DNA from: a phage
Sequence record: NC_042307.1
Strand: one strand, 5' to 3'
DNA length: 64,000 bases
Each line of letters opens with the position of its first letter. Position 1 is the stretch's first letter. The position numbers were made by a program, and so were the translations under genes. Positions 2,210 through 61,308 of this stretch are shown here, piece by piece. The notes beneath the pieces are model-generated. The model saw only the letters and a list, made by a program, of their open reading frames with translations. It did not search any database and had not been told where the DNA came from.

Positions 2210-2587
2210 ATGAAAGTAAAACCCTATATCATTGTTTCAACCTGTGGGAGCTACCAATTAGCGGTAGAAACCATAGAAGAAGCTATTTTTGCTGCTACTG
2301 GTGATTATTCTCATCTTGAGGGGGTTGGTTATCCTACCATTATTGGTAATTGGGTGGAAACTAATTTAGATGTTAATCCATATAATTCTGATTATGAAGA
2401 TGAAGAAGAGGTACAGGATAACATTGAATTTGTATATAAAAGAATCTTAAGTATCTATGAGCATCAGGGCAGCCCTATTGAGTATGTGGATATTACTGAA
2501 GTAGCTAAGAAGCGCCTTAAATACGTTTATGCCAATTTTTCAAATGAAGACCTGGAAACAGTTGCAGTGGAGTTTAATAATGACTAA
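2210..2587 (+). CDS. hypothetical protein
   Basis: 125-aa ORF immediately downstream of promoter with GAGAGG RBS; acidic middle region; no recognisable motif (not NrdG: no CxxxCxxC). Confidence 0.6.
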   Translation: MKVKPYIIVSTCGSYQLAVETIEEAIFAATGDYSHLEGVGYPTIIGNWVETNLDVNPYNSDYEDEEEVQDNIEFVYKRILSIYEHQGSPIEYVDITEVAKKRLKYVYANFSNEDLETVAVEFNND

Positions 2588-2786
2588 GAATGTAAAACAC
2601 CTTAAATATCGCTTAATTTACAACGGACGTATGGAAACAGAAGACCTAGCTCAATTAGCTATTAATTCTAATGAGGTCACGGTACGTGCGTTAGCTATTG
2701 AAAAGTTGCGGGCTTCTTATGAAAGTCGTATTATGGAACTAGAGGAGAAACTTTATGGCATTCTCGAAGCCGATGCTACCCGATAA
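2580..2786 (+). CDS. hypothetical protein
   Basis: ORF track 2529..2786; start moved to in-frame ATG at 2580 that overlaps the stop of the upstream gene (ATGA-type junction). Confidence 0.4.
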   Translation: MTKNVKHLKYRLIYNGRMETEDLAQLAINSNEVTVRALAIEKLRASYESRIMELEEKLYGILEADATR

Positions 2787-2976
2787 TGGCTTAAATGCTG
2801 CGCTGGAAAATGCATTGATGCAGCAGTGGGAGGCTGGATATAAGGATGGGGTTGAATCTTGTGCAAAAATAATGGATATTATGGCTAATTCTGTAGTTGG
2901 GAAAGCCCATCCAGAAGTATCTGATATACTCCATAACCTTAGTAAAAACTTCAGAGAGCAGGTGAAAAATGCGTAG
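2755..2976 (+). CDS. hypothetical protein
   Basis: 73-aa ORF in operon context; start uncertain (overlaps upstream ORF). Confidence 0.4.
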   Translation: MAFSKPMLPDNGLNAALENALMQQWEAGYKDGVESCAKIMDIMANSVVGKAHPEVSDILHNLSKNFREQVKNA

Positions 2977-3793
2977 ATTAATTATTATTAGTGGTGCAGG
3001 TTTGAGCGTTGAAAGTGGTGTACGAGCCTTCCGTACTGATACTGCTAGTGGTAAAGCATTGTGGGATGATTATGACTTAGAAGAGGTATGTAATATTCAT
3101 GCCTTTCGTGGTAGCTTTTACCACAAAACTCACGAGTTCTACAACAAACGTCGTGAAGAGTTAGAAACTGTTGAACCCAATCTTGCACACTTGCGTATTG
3201 GTGAGTGGTATAAACAATACCCAGGTCAAGTAGTAAACTTGACTACCAACGTTGATGACCTTATTGAGCGTGCTGGTGTTCCGCATAGTGACATTCTACA
3301 TATTCATGGGTATTTAAAAGAGGTTGTTGTAGCTGACAGCTACAATAGCAGTAATAAACGAGTTATTGATGTTGGGTATAGCTCTATTGACCCGGATGAT
3401 TATAAATGGGTTAAACCTAATGTAATCTTCTTTGGGGAGCATGCTCCAGCGTACGCAGAAATGTACAATATTTTTGATGGTATTACTAGTCAAGATATGA
3501 TAGTTGTAGTTGGTTGCTCTAACCAAGTAATTAATTTCTACTGGGAATTATTTCCTATTCTTAACCGTACTGCTGCGAAACTTATGGTAGTTAACTACTA
3601 TGATAGTGCCCTAGCGGCAGAACCAGGCTATCAAGGTATGACTCGTAGTGATATGTACCAACTGGAAGATCGTGGTATTCCTTACTGGAGTAAAGGTGCG
3701 GTAGATGCTTTCAGTGACCCTGGTTTTATCGCTCGTGTAGAAGCTCATCTAGAGGGTAGACCTTATATGCCGGGGAAACAGACATGTCCATAG
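2969..3793 (+). CDS. Sir2-family (CobB-like sirtuin) protein lacking the Zn-ribbon cysteines
   Basis: Motifs SGAGLSVESGVRAFR (cf. sirtuin GAGIS.ESGI..FR), TTNVDDLIERAG, ILHIHGYL (catalytic HG), NVIFFGE, VVVGCS; no Cys between HG and FGE motifs. Confidence 0.75.
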   Translation: MRRLIIISGAGLSVESGVRAFRTDTASGKALWDDYDLEEVCNIHAFRGSFYHKTHEFYNKRREELETVEPNLAHLRIGEWYKQYPGQVVNLTTNVDDLIERAGVPHSDILHIHGYLKEVVVADSYNSSNKRVIDVGYSSIDPDDYKWVKPNVIFFGEHAPAYAEMYNIFDGITSQDMIVVVGCSNQVINFYWELFPILNRTAAKLMVVNYYDSALAAEPGYQGMTRSDMYQLEDRGIPYWSKGAVDAFSDPGFIARVEAHLEGRPYMPGKQTCP

Positions 3794-3966
3794 TTAAATC
3801 TGTGTATACACATCCTGATGATATATTTGTATGGGCGGATGGTAGTTGGTGTTATCGATGTGAGCTATGGGAAATGGACTATAAATCTGATGACTATGGT
3901 GTCATATATGTTGATACGGTTGAGTATGATACGTTCTTAGCAAGGGACAAAAATGGAAATAAGTAA
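3784..3966 (+). CDS. hypothetical protein
   Basis: 60-aa ORF with overlapping start/stop junctions to neighbours. Confidence 0.4.
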   Translation: MSIVKSVYTHPDDIFVWADGSWCYRCELWEMDYKSDDYGVIYVDTVEYDTFLARDKNGNK

Positions 3967-4459
3967 TACTCCAATTATTTTTCTAGATATTGATGGGGTG
4001 CTCAACTCGAGCATCTCTCATCACCATGCACCTAATGATGAAAAGATTTTCTTTGGAAGTGACTGGGTTTTTAAACCGCTTCTCAAGGCTTTTCAGGACT
4101 TTATTCGTCCTTCTCCAATAATGATTGTTGGGGTATCTTCATGGTTCTCTGTCAGGAATGAGATGGAGAACGTTCAGATTATGACCGGATTAGATCTTAT
4201 CGATCGTTTTCTTGGTACAACGGATTTTACTGGTGGTGGGCTATCTAGGGGTAATTCTGTTCTTCGCTTCGTTGAAAAGTATAAGCTCAAACATTGGTGT
4301 GTGCTGGATGACGCTGGTGCTATGATGTATCAGTATCCAACGGTTATAGTCAATGGTAGAACTGGAATAAATCTTCAAGATTTAAGAGCTGTTAGCTATA
4401 TGTTAGAATTTAGTCCAGATCTTGAAATGTGTAAAGCCCTACAACAATTTAAGGTGTAA
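3953..4459 (+). CDS. HAD-superfamily hydrolase/phosphatase-like protein
   Basis: N-terminal IIFLDIDGVLN (HAD motif I DxDG) and downstream LDDAG. Confidence 0.55.
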   Translation: MEISNTPIIFLDIDGVLNSSISHHHAPNDEKIFFGSDWVFKPLLKAFQDFIRPSPIMIVGVSSWFSVRNEMENVQIMTGLDLIDRFLGTTDFTGGGLSRGNSVLRFVEKYKLKHWCVLDDAGAMMYQYPTVIVNGRTGINLQDLRAVSYMLEFSPDLEMCKALQQFKV

Positions 4460-4461
4460 AT

Positions 4462-4890
4462 ATGTTTAATAATGTATTCTCTAAAGAAGCTAACCCAATA
4501 TTGGTTAATTTTTGGCGTACTCTTCCAGACAACCTGTACAATGAGGCTATTAATGCCCTGAAAATATGGTGTGATAATAATGAAATCTCCTTTGCTTTTA
4601 GAGGTGAGGTTGAAGAATCTCCCTGTATTGGTTTAATTGTGCAGGTAGAGGATGGTTTTGAAGAGATTGTCGGCTGGAAAGAGTTAGATGAAATGGGCTT
4701 GGTTTTTGCATTAAACTATAAGCTATTTATGCCCAATAAACACCGTATTGTTGTTAACTATAAAACCGGTGAATCTCCTGGTTTTCAAGTTAACGAACAT
4801 TACGGTTGGTCTTACTCACCGGAAGAGGTAAATGATGGTATCCAGAAACTTCGTCGTTTTGGTTATCAAATTCCGGGTTTAACTGCCTAA
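4462..4890 (+). CDS. hypothetical protein, tandem paralog 1
   Basis: 142 aa; shares conserved blocks with next ORF (FAFRGEVEESPCIGL vs FTFPEQQIDDPCVGV; C-terminal YQIPGL vs IYVPGL). Confidence 0.6.
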   Translation: MFNNVFSKEANPILVNFWRTLPDNLYNEAINALKIWCDNNEISFAFRGEVEESPCIGLIVQVEDGFEEIVGWKELDEMGLVFALNYKLFMPNKHRIVVNYKTGESPGFQVNEHYGWSYSPEEVNDGIQKLRRFGYQIPGLTA

Positions 4891-4899
4891 GGAGGCACA

Positions 4900-5292
4900 A
4901 TGGAACAAGTATACTGGCGTCAGATAGACCCTAGTTTGGTGAAGCGTGCGGAGAAGCTGCTACAACGTTGGTTGGGGGTAAGACAAGCCTCCTTCACTTT
5001 TCCGGAGCAGCAAATAGACGATCCCTGTGTTGGTGTTTTTCTATCAGGCTACGCTGGGGAATGGGAATTGGATTGGAATGAATTGTCTGCTATAGGTCTA
5101 ATTGTTGCCCTAAATTTCTCTTTGTTCCATCCACGTGGTTTGGCCATATGTCGTGTGCCTGAGGACGGTTGTTCGCCCCATCTTTTACAGGTGGAAGATG
5201 ATATTTGGGAGTACACTCCAGATATTCTCAAAGAAGCCAAAGAACAATTAAACCGTGTTGGGATTTATGTTCCAGGCCTGAATGATGAATGA
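4900..5292 (+). CDS. hypothetical protein, tandem paralog 2
   Basis: 130 aa; paralogous to 4462..4890; GGAG RBS upstream. Confidence 0.6.
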   Translation: MEQVYWRQIDPSLVKRAEKLLQRWLGVRQASFTFPEQQIDDPCVGVFLSGYAGEWELDWNELSAIGLIVALNFSLFHPRGLAICRVPEDGCSPHLLQVEDDIWEYTPDILKEAKEQLNRVGIYVPGLNDE

Positions 5293-5431
5293 TTTTTATT
5301 AGCTGAACTTTGTAATCCGGGCTATTAGTGCTCGGATTATTACATAATCTTTTCAGTCGATTGATAGTCAAAATAAATTGTCGTTGACAATTTGGATGGA
5401 TTATGTAATAATATATGTATTGGAGGTGAGG

Positions 5432-5884
5432 ATGTCATTCACACAGCAAGAACTTTTAGATAACTTCCGGTATGAAGAGGGTAAGTTATTTAGAACTACA
5501 GGAAGAAATGCAGGGAAAGAATGTTGTGTTTCTACGGGTAACGGATATTATCGTATATCTCTAGGGAATAGGACTATGCTTCGGCATAGAGCAATATTTT
5601 TAATGCATCATGGATACTTACCTGATTTAGTAGACCATGTGAATACTATAAAAGGTGATGATCGTATTGAAAATCTTAGAGAGCAGACAGTATCCGGTAA
5701 TCTAAGAAATATCAAATATAAGAAAGGAATGCATGTTTACCCTTCTGGTAGTAAGAACTGGCAAGTGGTATTTACTATTAACCGTAAACGTATAGTTAAA
5801 GGAACATATGACAACTATGAGGTTGCATGTTCTATGGCCAAGATGTTTAGAGGTCAATTATACGGTAGGGAATCAATCCAGTAA
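5432..5884 (+). CDS. HNH homing endonuclease
   Basis: N-terminus MSFTQQELLDNFRYEEGKLF parallels MITQERLKELFDYSPETGEF of other HNH copies; HNH core HRAIFLMHHGYLP...DHVN; start set at ATG 5432 preceded by GGAGGTGAGG. Confidence 0.7.
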   Translation: MSFTQQELLDNFRYEEGKLFRTTGRNAGKECCVSTGNGYYRISLGNRTMLRHRAIFLMHHGYLPDLVDHVNTIKGDDRIENLREQTVSGNLRNIKYKKGMHVYPSGSKNWQVVFTINRKRIVKGTYDNYEVACSMAKMFRGQLYGRESIQ

Positions 5885-5892
5885 AATTTCAT

Positions 5893-5935
5893 TTGCAAGG
5901 GAGTATTATTTTATAGTATAATATTCCCATAAATG
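5893..5935 (+). promoter_or_regulatory. T5 early-type promoter upstream of long leader
   Basis: ttgcaa (5893-5898), 18-bp spacer, tataat (5917-5922), then cataaatgagagac downstream box. Confidence 0.5.
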
Positions 5936-6417
5936 AGAGACATTAGTAAAAATTGATTTTGCTAATTTTTCTTGTTTACAATCCGCGATACGGAACAGTT
6001 AGGCTGCCCCATTAAGGGTTGTTTTAACTATTACTAGTGTTTATATTGCATTAGTTAATCTTCAATTAAGTGATCTGTGTACCCTGAATTCGGAAAGGTA
6101 AATCCAAACCGTGCATATTTAGCTCGTTATATAGGCAGAGTTTTATATGGGGGTGCGAACGAAAAGAGCAGCGAATGGCGGCACGTACAGTAGTCACCTA
6201 CCAATAGGATAGTGAGGACAAATAGAATCGGCTTAGCGGCCAATGACCTAGGTTCTATTCTGTATATGAGCGAAGAGAGCACAGCACTGAGATATGATAA
6301 CTTATTCATATTGTTTGATGATAATTGATGTTTACGTAAATAGTAGTAATAGTTGTTCTATTCTTTCTGAATAGTCCTAAAGAAAAGATTTCGATTAACC
6401 AACACAGGAGTATTGTT

Positions 6418-9207
6418 GTGTTTTCTATCCTCCAAGGTCACGCCGGATTTTCTCGTGATTTAGCAACAGGTATTTGGCGAGAAATCAAAGCGGAAGATTA
6501 TACCTTTGCCAAGCGATTCTCGAAAGAGCATCCAGAAGGTAAACCAGCTTCTATGCCCTTCAAATTTGATGTAATAGAAGAGCACGACCCACAAAGCCTT
6601 GCCGAAATGTTACCCCTTATGAGACGTTTAACGTCTGATCCTCATATCGTTGCGGTACGAGGTCGATGTCTTGCACCAAAAAATAATGTGCGACGTAAGA
6701 AAGGTAACTTTAATGTATCTAATCCTAGTAATATTATTGCTATGGACGTGGATGGTATCCTAGATACCGGTGGGTACGACAAATTTAATCTTGTTGGTAT
6801 GGCCCGCCACATTATTAAGATGTTGAATAGTATTAGTGAGGATATGTTTCCTCTTGATGCAGGCTTTATAGCTCATGCATCGTCTTCGGCTGGGCTAAAA
6901 CCAGGTATCCGAATGCACTTAATGCTAGAATCTAACGTCAAGGTAACTCAGGGTCAGCTAAAGTTCTTATTTACATCTATCAACGATAGCAGTAAGCAAA
7001 AATTTGGTTTTGATATTGCCGACCTAGCTTATTATTCATCTGTCCAGCTCCACTATTTTGCCGACCCCTTATTTAGCGATGGTATTGTTGATCCGTTTAA
7101 AGCGGAGAGTAAGCCACGTCTGGTGTATGTTAAAGGTTCGAAAGTAAATTTGCCCAATAATCTGGTTGACTATGAAACAACTAGAGGGGAGTTTAAGGAA
7201 GAGTTTTATTCCTTACTTGATCAAATTAAAGGCAAAAAGATTGCTTCTGATAAAGTAGAAGAAACCATCAGCGAGTTAGAAGAGGCTGATGATGGAGTGT
7301 ATTTGCGTATTATCCCCAAACTATATCATAGAGCATTAGAGGATGGGGTTGATTTTGCATGGCTAGAACGTGAGATTAAACCAGCTTTATCTGAATATAT
7401 TGCAACTAAAGATAACAGTCGTAATATTCAAGATTACTTTAATAACGGTCGTAAGCAGGCTCTCAAAGCGTTTGTGAATAACTCCAAACGTGAGATTCCA
7501 TTAAATCTGAAAGGTGTTCCACTTAAGAAATTAGAAGTGGATTCTCCACCAGAAGTTCCATACCTGAAGATTAACATTGTGCCCCCAAAAGGCCATATAA
7601 CATTTGTTAAGGCAAGTCTTGGTACTGGTAAAACTACGGCAGTAACTAAATGGCTGGACGCAGGTGTTCTTCCTGGCAACTTTTTAGCAGTTACAAATAC
7701 TAGAGCACTAGTGTCTTCAAATGCTAAGAAATTTAGTGCAGGACAATATGATAAGTCTGTAGATATGCTTAATTTCAAGCGTGGTGCTATTGACCGTATG
7801 TCCACAACTATTCACTCTTTGCACAAGTTTAAGAGTTTTATTGGTCAAATTGATGCAATCTTTATCGATGAATGTGATGCAGTAATGAATGACTTATTAT
7901 TCGCCCCCGTTGTTAAACAACGTCGTGAATGTATTCAGGTTCTTCGGGATATTCTTGCAACTGCAAAAATAATTATATTATCTGATGGTGATATTAGTGC
8001 AGAAACAATTGAAGCCTATGGTTCTTTGATTGATTTTGATAAACCAGTAGCATTTTATAATCATCATCGTAAGATGCTGTCAAAAGCTCACGCTTATGAG
8101 TTTCCTGATGAATCCAGTATTTGGGTTGCACTTCAGACTTCTCTAGAAATGGGTGAGAAGTCCATTCTAGTATCTGATTGTGGGCCTGATGAGCTGAATG
8201 AGAAGGGTATGGCACTACGTCGTAATACTGGTGCGTTAGTTAAGGAAATCCATTCAAACTCTACCTCAGATGTGGATATTCGACGTATTCTGGATTATAC
8301 AACTAATGAGCTAATTGATCAACAAATTGATTGCTTATTATGTAGTCCATCCGTAACGAGTGGCGTTGACTTCAACTATTTCGATAATGTATTTGTTATT
8401 ACTAGAACCAGTAATCAGGCGCCGAACATGCGTTTCCAAGCAATCAGGCGCGACCGTGGTGCTCAGAACATCTATTATTTTATTGATAAATCCACTAGTG
8501 GGTTCTCCGCAGGTTCTGAACAATATAATATTGATGAAGGTTGGCTGGAGTTAGCACAGCAATTATACGCACGTCGTAGAGAGCTGGAATCTAGAAACTA
8601 TACTAGTACCTTACGTTATTATTTGCTTGATCAGGGCGCAACTATTGATATTTTCAGCGAAAGCTGGGGAACTATTGAAGGTGCTGGTAAAGAATATACA
8701 GAAGAGCGAATCAAAGCTATTCTGCATTCAACTCCAGATTATTGTGCCCCACGTCATGCAGATGCATATGAAGCTAAACTACTTCTTGTTCGCTATTATC
8801 ATCTTGAGTCTATTAAAGATGTAACAGTTGAGCATGTTGAACAATATATCAAAGATAAACCGAATGATCGAGCTGCATTCTTCCATAAGATGCACGAGAT
8901 GTTCTGGGAAGATATTAAGAAGTGTTCAAATGTAACCATTAAACCATTCATAGAAGCTCTGAAAGGTAAGAAGAAAGACTTCTTCCTTAAAACAGGTCAG
9001 AGTGCTAACCCAAAATATGCTAGAATGTATCTTGGTATGATGGGTATTGGTAAGGATATGAACACTGAAAATATCGTAGACTGGTACAGAACCTATTGTA
9101 AAATCGAGTGTATGCCGATTCCTTTCAAATTCATGACTGACGAGGAAAAACATATGCATGATGAAGCAATGTCAGAGCTAGGTGCTAGAAATGACAGTGA
9201 AGAATAA
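6418..9207 (+). CDS. putative replication primase-helicase / origin-binding-like protein (P-loop NTPase)
   Basis: 929 aa, GTG start with AGGAG RBS; N-terminal acidic DxD (IIAMDVDGI) and MHLMLE motifs suggestive of primase-polymerase fold; Walker A ASLGTGKTTAV and Walker B FIDECDAV. Confidence 0.6.
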   Translation: MFSILQGHAGFSRDLATGIWREIKAEDYTFAKRFSKEHPEGKPASMPFKFDVIEEHDPQSLAEMLPLMRRLTSDPHIVAVRGRCLAPKNNVRRKKGNFNVSNPSNIIAMDVDGILDTGGYDKFNLVGMARHIIKMLNSISEDMFPLDAGFIAHASSSAGLKPGIRMHLMLESNVKVTQGQLKFLFTSINDSSKQKFGFDIADLAYYSSVQLHYFADPLFSDGIVDPFKAESKPRLVYVKGSKVNLPNNLVDYETTRGEFKEEFYSLLDQIKGKKIASDKVEETISELEEADDGVYLRIIPKLYHRALEDGVDFAWLEREIKPALSEYIATKDNSRNIQDYFNNGRKQALKAFVNNSKREIPLNLKGVPLKKLEVDSPPEVPYLKINIVPPKGHITFVKASLGTGKTTAVTKWLDAGVLPGNFLAVTNTRALVSSNAKKFSAGQYDKSVDMLNFKRGAIDRMSTTIHSLHKFKSFIGQIDAIFIDECDAVMNDLLFAPVVKQRRECIQVLRDILATAKIIILSDGDISAETIEAYGSLIDFDKPVAFYNHHRKMLSKAHAYEFPDESSIWVALQTSLEMGEKSILVSDCGPDELNEKGMALRRNTGALVKEIHSNSTSDVDIRRILDYTTNELIDQQIDCLLCSPSVTSGVDFNYFDNVFVITRTSNQAPNMRFQAIRRDRGAQNIYYFIDKSTSGFSAGSEQYNIDEGWLELAQQLYARRRELESRNYTSTLRYYLLDQGATIDIFSESWGTIEGAGKEYTEERIKAILHSTPDYCAPRHADAYEAKLLLVRYYHLESIKDVTVEHVEQYIKDKPNDRAAFFHKMHEMFWEDIKKCSNVTIKPFIEALKGKKKDFFLKTGQSANPKYARMYLGMMGIGKDMNTENIVDWYRTYCKIECMPIPFKFMTDEEKHMHDEAMSELGARNDSEE

Positions 9208-9442
9208 AAAATGGGAAACAAGGAAGTTTCCAGTAAAAGAACGTAAAGTTCCTGTTTATGATACTTCGGAGAAGCTATGTAGGGTGGTTCCTGCTAGACT
9301 AGCATCCATAAATGGCATAGGCGCATGGTTGCTAAAGCAGAGAAAGCAAAGCATATCATTACGTATATCTTTTGAGTTAGACCAAATCTATAGAGAATTG
9401 GGAGAATTGATTAAAGAAAATGATAACACAGGAAGAGGTTAG
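9191..9442 (+). CDS. hypothetical protein
   Basis: ORF track 9182..9442; likely start at ATG 9191 overlapping upstream gene end. Confidence 0.4.
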   Translation: MTVKNKKWETRKFPVKERKVPVYDTSEKLCRVVPARLASINGIGAWLLKQRKQSISLRISFELDQIYRELGELIKENDNTGRG

Positions 9443-9878
9443 AGAGGCTTTTGAGTATGATCCTGAAACAGGCCATCTTAAATGGAAGAAAACAAGACAG
9501 AAGAGTCTAGTAGGTAAGTTTGCCGGTGGTAAACATAAAGGGTATATAAGAATAGGGTTTAAGCGTAGGCACTGGGGAGAACATCAGCTGGTATTCTTAT
9601 ATCATAAGGGGTACATACCAGAAGAGATAGACCACAAAAACAGGATTAAAGATTGCAACTTTATAGAGAATTTAGAAGACTCCAATAGATCTAAGCAAAT
9701 GCACAATATTAATGTACGTAAAGACAATAAGTTGGGTGAGCCTAATATCTACATGAGGGGCGATAAATATTGTGTGCTAATGCAGAAAGGATCTATTCGT
9801 AAGTACCAGCAGTGCAATACTATAGAAGAGGCTAAAAAAGTTAGGGCTAATTTTAAGTCCGAACTCTATCCAAATTAA
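9420..9878 (+). CDS. HNH homing endonuclease
   Basis: MITQEEVREAFEYDPETGHLKWKK N-terminus and HNH core LVFLYHKGYIPEEIDHKN. Confidence 0.75.
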   Translation: MITQEEVREAFEYDPETGHLKWKKTRQKSLVGKFAGGKHKGYIRIGFKRRHWGEHQLVFLYHKGYIPEEIDHKNRIKDCNFIENLEDSNRSKQMHNINVRKDNKLGEPNIYMRGDKYCVLMQKGSIRKYQQCNTIEEAKKVRANFKSELYPN

Positions 9879-59583: not shown

Positions 59584-61308
59584 TTACTGTACAAAAAATT
59601 TACCGTTTTTAAAGTCGATCAAAGTACGTTGCCCGTTTGCATAGGTAATTAAATGCGTTTGCGTCCAGCTTGACGCGCCCACGTTGTAGCCCATATCAAG
59701 CGACCCCGCCACGCCAGCGGTATAAACGCCGCCGTAAATGCTAGCCGTATGAGTATGACCAGTGTTAAGGCGTCCCAACTTTTTAAACTGCTTAGGATTG
59801 CCCCGACTGCCGTTAATGCCATTGTGACCGTGTACGCCGCATTCAATGCCAGCGATTTTAAATGATTGGTCTGTCGTCAGGAAAATAGCGTTAAATTCGC
59901 AACCTGCGACATTACGCAAGGCGTAATCTAGAACGTTAAAGGTATCATCCTTTTCAGCAATAGCGGCGTAAATCGCAGCGTTTAGACGGTGATACAATTC
60001 CGCGTTTGCGGGATCGTCTTTAATGTTTGCGTTACGATCATCTAGCCAGCGTGAAAGAGCTAAATCATGGTTAGATTCCACAATGATTGTTTGAGAGAAA
60101 TCACGCTCCATAGACTCTAAAACGCGTCCAGTATCGATAAGATCATCTAGAACCTTGTCACGTCCGGCGGCGTACTGTTTAGCAAGGAATACACCACTTG
60201 CGCGGTTATGATGATTGCGCGATGTAAAATCATGCACATCATGAATAAACTGATATTTCGGTTTAAGAATATCAAGCAAGCTGTTTTCACTAGCCCATGA
60301 TGCAACGGCGCAATCATCATCTAATTTTTCGGCGTGAATATCGCCATATTGCAAGCCTAGAACATGATCGGATGTTTCAAAACATCCGGTAGGCATAGCG
60401 CAAACATTCAAATCGTAGAACATGCCGCTTTCGTCCATTGTTTCAAGCTGGCGGCAATAAAATTCTCCGTCGTCGTCAAATTCTACTAGCAAAGCGCCGA
60501 AATTATGTAAAGCCTCGGCTTTTTGACCTGCTTTCTGCTGAATGTAGTTTTTAAGCGTAGCCGTTCCGGTTGAATACATACGGCGCACTACTTCACCTTT
60601 TAACGCTGGCACACTTTCAGCGGTGATTTTAGCATGACCGATTGCCAAACCTTCGATATTTAAAGCCGTGGCGGTTTCTGCGAATCCTGAAAGCGGATAA
60701 TCTGCCGTTGGTAAAACGTTAATTTCAGCCATGAAAGCGAAACGGCGGTTATTTAAAAACACGTTTTTGCTGCAAATATATTTGTCAAATGCAGAATCAT
60801 ATTTGATTCCGTCGGCGCCCTCGCCATTTTGAAAACCGTTTTTATTATAAATATATTTTGAAACGAGCAAATCAGCGCCGATAAACTGGGCATATTGTTC
60901 AAGCGCGGCCAAAAAGTTTTTATGCGGGAACGTATTATTCTGAATCGACGTAATAATGAAGCGGTTGCCCTGCTTTACTTCCCAGCTTTCTACCGTGCTA
61001 GAAATAACTCCAGCGGCTTCAGGGCGTTCGTCGTTTTTGATAGCTTTTACAGCTTTCGCCGTTTTTGGTTTCGCTGGTTTATTTGCTTCCAACCAATCAC
61101 AAATAGCGGTGGAATGTTTTGCAGTATCGTAAACCATTTTTGAGATGTCGTCGCATACTTCCAGCTTAGTAGCGCGCAGACGTTTACCGTAGAAATTGAA
61201 ATCAGCGGCAAGGTTGAGGATCTGGGTTTGTTTTTCTGCGGAAATAACCATAGTAATAAACTCCATTAAAGGGATTAAAAAACGTTTGTTATTGGCAAAT
61301 ATTGCCAA
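59584..61308 (-). CDS. A1-like pre-early protein with calcineurin-like metallophosphoesterase motifs
   Basis: 574 aa; motifs GDIHAE, SNHDLA, GVHGHNG, NTGHTH in the order expected for metallophosphatase active site. Confidence 0.6.
   Translation of the reverse strand: MAIFANNKRFLIPLMEFITMVISAEKQTQILNLAADFNFYGKRLRATKLEVCDDISKMVYDTAKHSTAICDWLEANKPAKPKTAKAVKAIKNDERPEAAGVISSTVESWEVKQGNRFIITSIQNNTFPHKNFLAALEQYAQFIGADLLVSKYIYNKNGFQNGEGADGIKYDSAFDKYICSKNVFLNNRRFAFMAEINVLPTADYPLSGFAETATALNIEGLAIGHAKITAESVPALKGEVVRRMYSTGTATLKNYIQQKAGQKAEALHNFGALLVEFDDDGEFYCRQLETMDESGMFYDLNVCAMPTGCFETSDHVLGLQYGDIHAEKLDDDCAVASWASENSLLDILKPKYQFIHDVHDFTSRNHHNRASGVFLAKQYAAGRDKVLDDLIDTGRVLESMERDFSQTIIVESNHDLALSRWLDDRNANIKDDPANAELYHRLNAAIYAAIAEKDDTFNVLDYALRNVAGCEFNAIFLTTDQSFKIAGIECGVHGHNGINGSRGNPKQFKKLGRLNTGHTHTASIYGGVYTAGVAGSLDMGYNVGASSWTQTHLITYANGQRTLIDFKNGKFFVQ

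Follow-up and report, generated by a model that had tools for sequence, protein, structure and literature searches.

Evidence for a large conserved RNA structure upstream of the D2 helicase gene in T5-like phages

The locus, its early promoter and its coding potential

T5 is a textbook phage, yet the roughly 500 nt that precede its D2 helicase gene are blank, or filled with dubious small ORFs, in the sampled public records. What these nucleotides encode is the question addressed here. We analyzed a 64,000-nt stretch of phage DNA (record NC_042307.1; hereafter the window), in which the region at 5885-6417 shares 99.4% identity with Escherichia phage AKFV33, a relative of T5; with T5 itself, the identity is 98.4% across 5917-6417. 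The region is a non-coding stretch between the gene of a free-standing HNH endonuclease (5432-5884) and D2 (6418-9207). Given that the HNH gene is missing at the same site in T5 and present in AKFV33, this HNH_3 ORF looks like a homing-endonuclease insertion beside the promoter. Another free-standing HNH_3 endonuclease ORF was found at 9420-9878, the pair bracketing the leader and D2 unit, and two adjoining paralogous DUF7415 genes (4462-4890 and 4900-5292) were located upstream of the HNH insertion.

An early sigma-70 promoter was identified at 5893-5922 on the + strand, with the -35 element TTGCAA (5893-5898), an 18-nt spacer and the -10 element TATAAT (5917-5922). It matched the consensus at 10 of 12 positions in the scan and is annotated at the same place in the AKFV33 and T5 records, which bears out the promoter placed at 5893-5935 by the initial annotation. 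The alignment showed the same promoter position to be occupied in all lineages. Moreover, the promoter has ATATT as its discriminator, as is described for the early promoters of T5 (PMC7472727). Transcription probably starts at about 5929. From the promoter to the GTG of D2 there are about 490 nt without a conserved ORF, and neither a promoter nor a terminator was called on the + strand between 5983 and 6417. A second promoter candidate, TTGATT-18 nt-TACAAT at 5953-5982, was unconserved in the Sugarland-like, DU_PP_V and My1 phages and was therefore not adopted. The AKFV33-type promoter alone has an 11-nt inverted repeat, GGGAGTATTAT/ATAATATTCCC (5899-5909/5918-5928), across its spacer and -10 element; this repeat, which could be an operator, accounts for the sole Rfam noise matches (mir-3938).

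Translation of D2 starts at the GTG at 6418, behind the Shine-Dalgarno sequence AGGAG at 6407-6411 (the two together spanning 6407-6420), according to the ORF list and the T5 and AKFV33 annotation, so that the GTG start and the 929-aa product first proposed were both correct. D2 is annotated as 'replication origin binding protein' in T5 and AKFV33. Its Pfam match is confined to residues 389-533, which correspond to Herpes_ori_bp, the herpes UL9-type helicase core, and it also matches herpes origin-binding protein chains in the PDB; since only this segment matches a family, the 'primase' in the name given to the protein initially was unsupported. Published work established D2 as a bipolar SF2 helicase (PMC3632103).

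The region had also been described as about 480 nt without a convincing ORF, and this description held: the longest open frame on the + strand is 44 codons from stop to stop, open frames vary among the lineages in where they lie, in frame and in strand, and no ORF was conserved in position, frame, strand or peptide. Short ORFs are present, among them two with a GTG start and 38 codons (6077-6193 and 6212-6328), and several public records place two or three 'hypothetical protein' calls under the match. However, most sampled records annotate nothing, or only a promoter, there, and the substitutions are compensatory across helices rather than codon-periodic, which, with the lack of any ORF kept across lineages, makes it hardly credible that the region encodes one or more small proteins. 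No RNA feature is annotated here in the sampled public records, and neither the literature searched nor Rfam gave a description of this RNA; the 'Rad' of T5-like phages turned out to be an unrelated protein. Using cmscan with the 4227 models of Rfam 15, positions 5000-7000 gave microRNA and snoRNA noise only at E <= 10, the whole window gave no match at the gathering thresholds, and eight related loci gave only two terminator-like small-RNA matches at E <= 1, both outside the element. Similarly, ARAGORN called no tRNA or tmRNA gene in the whole window.

Distribution and two interchangeable cores

The region was found in 443 phage records, essentially every T5-like genome, and a close D2 in about 440, the RNA always lying directly upstream of D2 in the same orientation. 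In about 170 of the 443 records, the match was limited to the first ~125 nt and the last ~75 nt, and an equally long segment that could not be aligned by BLAST took the place of the middle 300 nt (6042-6344). We named these versions A (that of the window) and B, and those of the Klebsiella Sugarland-like, Pectobacterium DU_PP_V and My1 phages K, P and M, respectively. Forced alignment of the A and B cores gave only 35-48% identity, compared with 86-97% in the flanks and 67-97% in D2. The core, of which near-identical phages carry one or the other of two "alleles" that cannot be aligned, diverges much faster than D2 does. When the sequences upstream of D2 from A, B, K, P and M were aligned, the identity islands were a 26-nt motif and GGCTTAGCGGCC; in the segments flanking these islands, the sequence differs and the complementarity is kept. 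The architecture is common to Klebsiella, Pectobacterium and Providencia phages and to an uncultured viral contig (L061) with a D2 of 66% identity. When metagenomes were scanned with an 18-mer from the invariant motif, most matches were random, only about nine T5-like contigs being useful, and a scan of genome contigs for D2 relatives found none. Phage NR01 (L022:2460-2560), L017, 26175I, 1586 and atrejo carry a 96-nt insertion between the 5' hairpin and the invariant motif, with a TTTTTCTT duplication on its flanks and an 8-bp hairpin of its own. Because it occurs with both A-type and B-type cores, this insertion looks like a small mobile or inserted RNA module.

We also inspected more distant Demerecviridae, in which the D2 homologue is named obp. 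In the Vibrio phages Brizo, Pylo, KIT04 and D233 and the Aeromonas phage TS3, a consensus promoter is followed by 0.6-1.6 kb without credible genes upstream of obp, and in Brizo (L070:1704-2417), Pylo (L193:1166-2001) and KIT04 (L194:1161-2000) the layout upstream of obp is that of the T5-like phages. Within the Vibrio group, the first ~130 nt, which hold a hairpin and a U-run, and the last ~30 nt are conserved, while the 550-700-nt core of Brizo cannot be aligned with that of Pylo/KIT04, which repeats the cassette pattern of A and B. Apparent compensatory changes were noticed between Pylo and KIT04. The Aeromonas TS3 locus (L072:718-2309) has about 1.6 kb without an annotated gene upstream of obp, with two tandem promoter-like sites, two hairpin loops containing CTTAGCGG (at 1197 and 1442) and, by eye, a terminator-like hairpin with a U-run at about 2180-2245.

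Folding and covariation of the RNA

We propose, with a probability of about 90%, that the + strand of 5929-6417, transcribed from the early promoter, folds into a large and evolutionarily conserved RNA. A structured leader RNA had been one of the suggestions in the initial annotation, and it is now strongly supported by covariation, by strand-specific folding and by the promoter found immediately upstream in each lineage. For the + strand of 6026-6354, the folding energy is -89.2 kcal/mol and z = -3.06 (none of 100 shuffles was as good), compared with z = -1.25 for the - strand, and covarying pairs stand well above the controls.

At the 5' end, the minimum-energy fold contains the hairpin P0 (5943-5973), in which UUAGUAAAA (5943-5951) pairs with UUUUGCUAA (5957-5965) and is followed by the U-run UUUUUCUU (5966-5973). 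The P0 stem covaries, being UUAGACAA/UUGUCUAA in DU_PP_V, and a U.G pair becomes U-A in L023. Other hairpins occupy the P0 position in My1 and a Sugarland-like phage, and the hairpin and U-run of the Vibrio phages are analogous. The AU-rich stem was not called by the terminator scan, though the hairpin with its U-run is structurally conserved, and P0 looks like an attenuator or a 5' stabiliser. Downstream of it lies the 26-nt motif GAUACGGAACAGUUAGGCUGCCCCAU (5987-6012), which is nearly invariant and predicted to be mostly single-stranded. It is near-identical in the T5-like, Klebsiella Sugarland-like and Pectobacterium My1/DU_PP_V phages, the D2 proteins of which are only 75-79% identical. 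No pairing partner was found for this motif. An outer closing helix, GAACAG (5993)/UUGUUC (6351), was considered and rejected, as it pairs in the T5-like and Sugarland-like phages and fails in DU_PP_V and My1.

The folded core (6026-6354) consists of an interrupted closing stem, P1-P2, around two domains, with the hairpin P8 branching off; the repeat search detected two inverted repeats (I1 and I2) within it. The closing stem comprises about 40 bp and has a conserved 2-nt bulge. Its elements P1 (6026-6036/6344-6354), P2a (6069-6072/6285-6288) and P2b (6075-6080/6279-6284), as well as P8 (6292-6297/6306-6311), are complementary with different sequences in five lineages. P1a (6038-6044/6336-6342), P1b (6048-6060/6320-6331) and P1c (6062-6065/6315-6318) were taken from the minimum-energy fold and, in the window type, are compatible with the substitutions in L012; a different register for P1c in the window type (6062-6068/6322-6328) implied a disruptive L012 change and was dropped, since the minimum-energy register fits better.

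Domain 1 (6081-6160) is closed by P3 (6081-6085/6150-6154) around branched hairpins. The window (A) type diverges in this domain: it has no obvious P4, and only P3 could be assigned, by eye. A kissing-loop pseudoknot between P3b and P8 was inconsistent across lineages and was discarded. Domain 2 (6166-6275) is a three-way junction of P5 (6185-6190/6260-6265), P6 (6193-6195/6217-6219 with an inner hairpin) and P7 (6221-6227/6253-6259), each of which shows compensatory changes between the window and L012. The tip of P7, GGCU-UAGC-GGCC (6230-6241), holds the octamer CUUAGCGG (6232-6239), which is invariant in all 15 distinct sequences of the domain 2 alignment (A5), with covariation (G-C, A-U, U.G) in the pairs that immediately flank it; the octamer also occurs in a Providencia PR1-like phage (L028) and in L061. 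The imperfect inverted repeat noted initially around 6225-6270 corresponds to P7 together with P5. An exact 10-nt direct repeat, GTTCTATTCT, is found at 6252-6261 and 6355-6364 in the A type only; the 3' strand of P7 thereby recurs just past P1 as an alternative partner for 6221-6227, and a conformational switch is possible.

On the 3' side of the core, the hairpin P9 (6358-6374, CUAUUC-UUUCU-GAAUAG) covaries, being CUAUC/GAUAG in a Sugarland-like phage and CUUUCC/GGAAAG in DU_PP_V, and ends 32 nt before the Shine-Dalgarno sequence. As the hairpin is not followed by a U-run, P9 is not a terminator. An AT-rich tract with direct repeats had been pointed out at 6340-6380; the tract is real, with 25% GC across 6300-6399, while the repeats are trivial. 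The tract corresponds to the 3' strand of P1 (6344-6354) plus P9, and the bases of the 25%-GC stretch serve at the same time as the 3' strands of P1-P1c and P8.

The same helices are thus built from differing sequences in the five lineages, covariation being seen in about a dozen helices. P1 reads AACUAUUAC/GUAAUAGUU, AACUGUUAC/GUAACAGUU, GGCUUA/UAAGCU, GAUUAUUAUAC/GUAUAAUAAUU and GGUUAUUAUAUAAC/GUUAUAUAAUAACC, and P2b reads CUGUGU/GCACAG, CUGCGU/GCGCAG, CUACAU/GUGUAG, CUAGAA/UUCUAG and CUACAC/GUGUAG. Within lineages, where closely related phages are compared and the alignment is trivial, the variant pairs comprised 11 double compensatory, 7 one-sided compatible and 3 disruptive changes, and slid controls with the partner shifted by 1-3 nt gave zero or one double change.

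A covariance model was then applied to domain 2. Built from the B-type domain only, the model placed the domain where it was expected in types K, P, M and A, as well as in two Providencia PR1-like phages (L028 and L034) and L061. In the resulting alignment A5, 93.7% of the cells were paired, compared with 35-44% in the slid controls, and 25 of the 27 pairs changed on both sides; the covariation score was 0.61, compared with at most 0.13 in the controls, and none of 500 shuffles reached this value. Domain 1 behaved similarly in the alignment A8 of the B, DU_PP_V and My1 types, with 97.1% of the cells paired compared with 43-54% when slid, 9 of 15 pairs changed on both sides, and P3, P3b and P4 covarying. 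These percentages come from alignments fitted to a model, which lean towards the structure of that model, and few independent lineages stand behind the sequences. The rebuilt domain 2 model (R2) scored the window domain at 69.6 bits (E = 7e-14) and detected the untrained homologue L061 at E = 0.007, with no false match in 530 kb of unrelated metagenomic DNA at E <= 0.1 and no second copy within the window. The Vibrio and Aeromonas upstream regions gave no significant match to R2, and the domain 1 model (R3) detected neither the window type nor the Sugarland-like type.

Could the helices be mere by-products of palindromic sites in a region that acts only as double-stranded DNA, bound by D2 or by transcription factors? 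The 26-nt motif and CTTAGCGG could serve as protein-recognition sequences, but helices whose strands lie up to 330 nt apart (P1, P2) covary, many pairs are G.U and would not be complementary on the other strand, the fold is strand-asymmetric, and there are no repeated boxes; we regard this explanation as very improbable. We regard the element as a new family of RNA; its general kind, that of the large structured leaders or non-coding RNAs, is a known one. Complex folded RNAs of more than 300 nt are rare in bacteria and phages, and those that are understood mostly have notable biochemical roles. Like GOLLD, ROOL, OLE, HEARO and raiA, the element is several hundred nt long, has a multi-domain covarying architecture and is phage-borne. 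Unlike them, it has no match, even at E <= 10, among the 4227 models of Rfam 15, its host range is that of the Demerecviridae of Enterobacterales, and it is fixed upstream of one gene rather than lying near tRNA genes.

Possible roles of the RNA

In the window phage, the RNA forms, in physical terms, the leader at the 5' end of the D2 mRNA, because no promoter or terminator separates the two. For this reason we rank first, as a leading guess at somewhat less than even odds, a cis-acting control or processing module that sets the amount of D2 helicase. The invariant 26-nt motif or the CUUAGCGG loop would be the candidate binding site of a protein, which could be D2 or a different early one, and binding would shift the folding of the leader, its stability, or read-through of the promoter-proximal hairpin and U-run. 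Long autoregulated 5' leaders include the ~360-nt E. coli rne leader and the translational operators of phage T4 gene 32 and gene 43. The element resembles these in being a promoter-proximal folded RNA upstream of the gene of a nucleic-acid enzyme, and by analogy its conserved hairpins could bind the product of that gene. However, in size and branching it goes far beyond the T4 operators, it has no sequence or Rfam relationship to them or to the rne leader, and the helicase gene of L061 has a promoter of its own, downstream of the RNA. That promoter (TTGACA, 18 nt, TATAAT) is a consensus one and lies between the RNA and obp, and in Vibrio D233 and Aeromonas TS3, terminator-like hairpins with U-runs, identified by eye, follow the upstream non-coding region. 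Given these two observations, the RNA need not belong to the helicase mRNA everywhere, and both count against a cis leader. So do the fast divergence of the core and its two unalignable alleles, which would be unusual for a housekeeping operator, and the hairpin around the Shine-Dalgarno sequence, which has no conservation outside the T5-like phages.

Nearly as likely as a cis leader, though still tentative, is a stand-alone stable non-coding RNA acting in trans; its target could, for example, be a protein of the host or the phage, or it could serve as a decoy during host takeover or anti-defence. The separate obp promoter in L061, downstream of a proven homologue of the RNA, and the terminator-like hairpins of D233 and TS3 speak for it, as does a strong promoter of its own in every lineage. 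Moreover, the size, complexity and invariant loop motifs are typical of partner-binding RNAs, and the core is swapped as a cassette between near-identical phages, in the T5-like as well as the Vibrio group, which is common for host-interaction loci. In T5-like phages, such an RNA would be cut from the D2 leader, for example by RNase III or RNase E at the P1-P2 stem, and its adjacency to D2 would be inherited gene order only. The RNase III sites of T7 early genes are simple hairpins of about 60 nt. By analogy with these, P1-P2 is a long irregular stem (about 40 bp) with internal loops in an early polycistronic transcript; unlike them, it closes a 200-nt multi-domain core, and cleavage here is putative. 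Against a trans-acting RNA stand the lack of a terminator in the window scan of 5983-6417 and the lack of a significant R2 match in the Vibrio and Aeromonas regions.

A replication origin had also been suggested for this region, and for that we found no support. No DnaA box (TTATCCACA, <=1 mismatch) was found in 2493-7310, the only direct repeats are short and present in two copies, which leaves no iterons, and the GC skew does not change sign at the region, being positive across 1-30 kb and turning only at about 30 kb, a change that presumably reflects the early/late transcription strand switch and is unrelated to the finding. A related and rather improbable reading is that of an origin-associated transcript, in which a promoter-driven, purine-rich folded RNA forms an R-loop or primer, or loads D2, at an origin beside the initiator gene, and the AT-rich 6300-6400 would be the unwinding element. 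The ColE1 RNA II pre-primer and the R-loop origins of T4, ori(uvsY) and ori(34), are examples of this kind. Like them, the region has a strong promoter and a folded transcript of several hundred nt beside replication functions, and a purine-rich segment (6150-6249, AT skew +0.375, GC skew +0.19) followed by an AT-rich stretch, whose 25% GC across 6300-6399 is what an unwinding element calls for. The RNA adjoins the gene of a UL9-like origin-binding helicase in all Demerecviridae examined. D2 starts at 59,615 of 121,752 bp in T5, that is, at 49% of the genome, and one of the internal T5 origins that Bourguignon described is reportedly central. Such internal origins were seen as bidirectional ones by electron microscopy (Bourguignon 1976, according to a passage in PMC3632103). 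However, T5 recombineering showed a strand bias at sites across the genome that indicates a predominance of unidirectional replication starting at one end and argues against a dominant central origin (PMC10055335). Moreover, the DnaA boxes, iterons and skew inflection are absent here, no promoter-like site on the - strand, of the antisense RNA I type known from ColE1, was found inside 5886-6417, and simple R-loop origins do not require conserved multi-branch folding.

We also considered a single-strand origin of the ssoA type, which is defined by an RSB and a CS-6 element, the latter being TAGCGT (PMC4598088). The element shares with ssoA a folded single strand with a conserved hairpin tip containing TAGCG (here UAGCGG), and the loop TAGCGG has 5 of the 6 bases of CS-6. 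No RSB was found within 3 mismatches in the whole window, T5 is not a rolling-circle plasmid, and CTTAGCGG showed no enrichment in the window (3 copies, compared with 1.3 expected). This candidate was rejected, the RNA reading being simpler because a promoter lies directly upstream.

A further possibility, which we also hold to be rather doubtful, is that the RNA is a specificity or cofactor element that is recognised by, or loads, the UL9-like helicase D2, and that RNA and protein co-evolve. It is raised because the two unalignable RNA alleles are accompanied by the same split in D2 at nt 7484-7783. With only three lineages, this shared A/B split may be chance. If the reading were true, the element would represent a new class of large structured RNAs, one linked to the initiation of replication in a classical model phage. 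The element adjoins the gene of a replication initiator helicase and makes testable how T5 controls or initiates its replication, and why two interchangeable forms of one large RNA are maintained in a phage; the two invariant motifs, the 26-nt one and CUUAGCGG, are ready-made targets for mutagenesis. The D2 segment at nt 7484-7783 (residues ~356-455, the linker before Walker A) is the most divergent part of D2. No A/B split is seen in the roughly 900 nt that separate this segment from the RNA; in the segment itself, the A1 and A2 groups are 81% identical to each other and both are 67-68% identical to the B-type phages.
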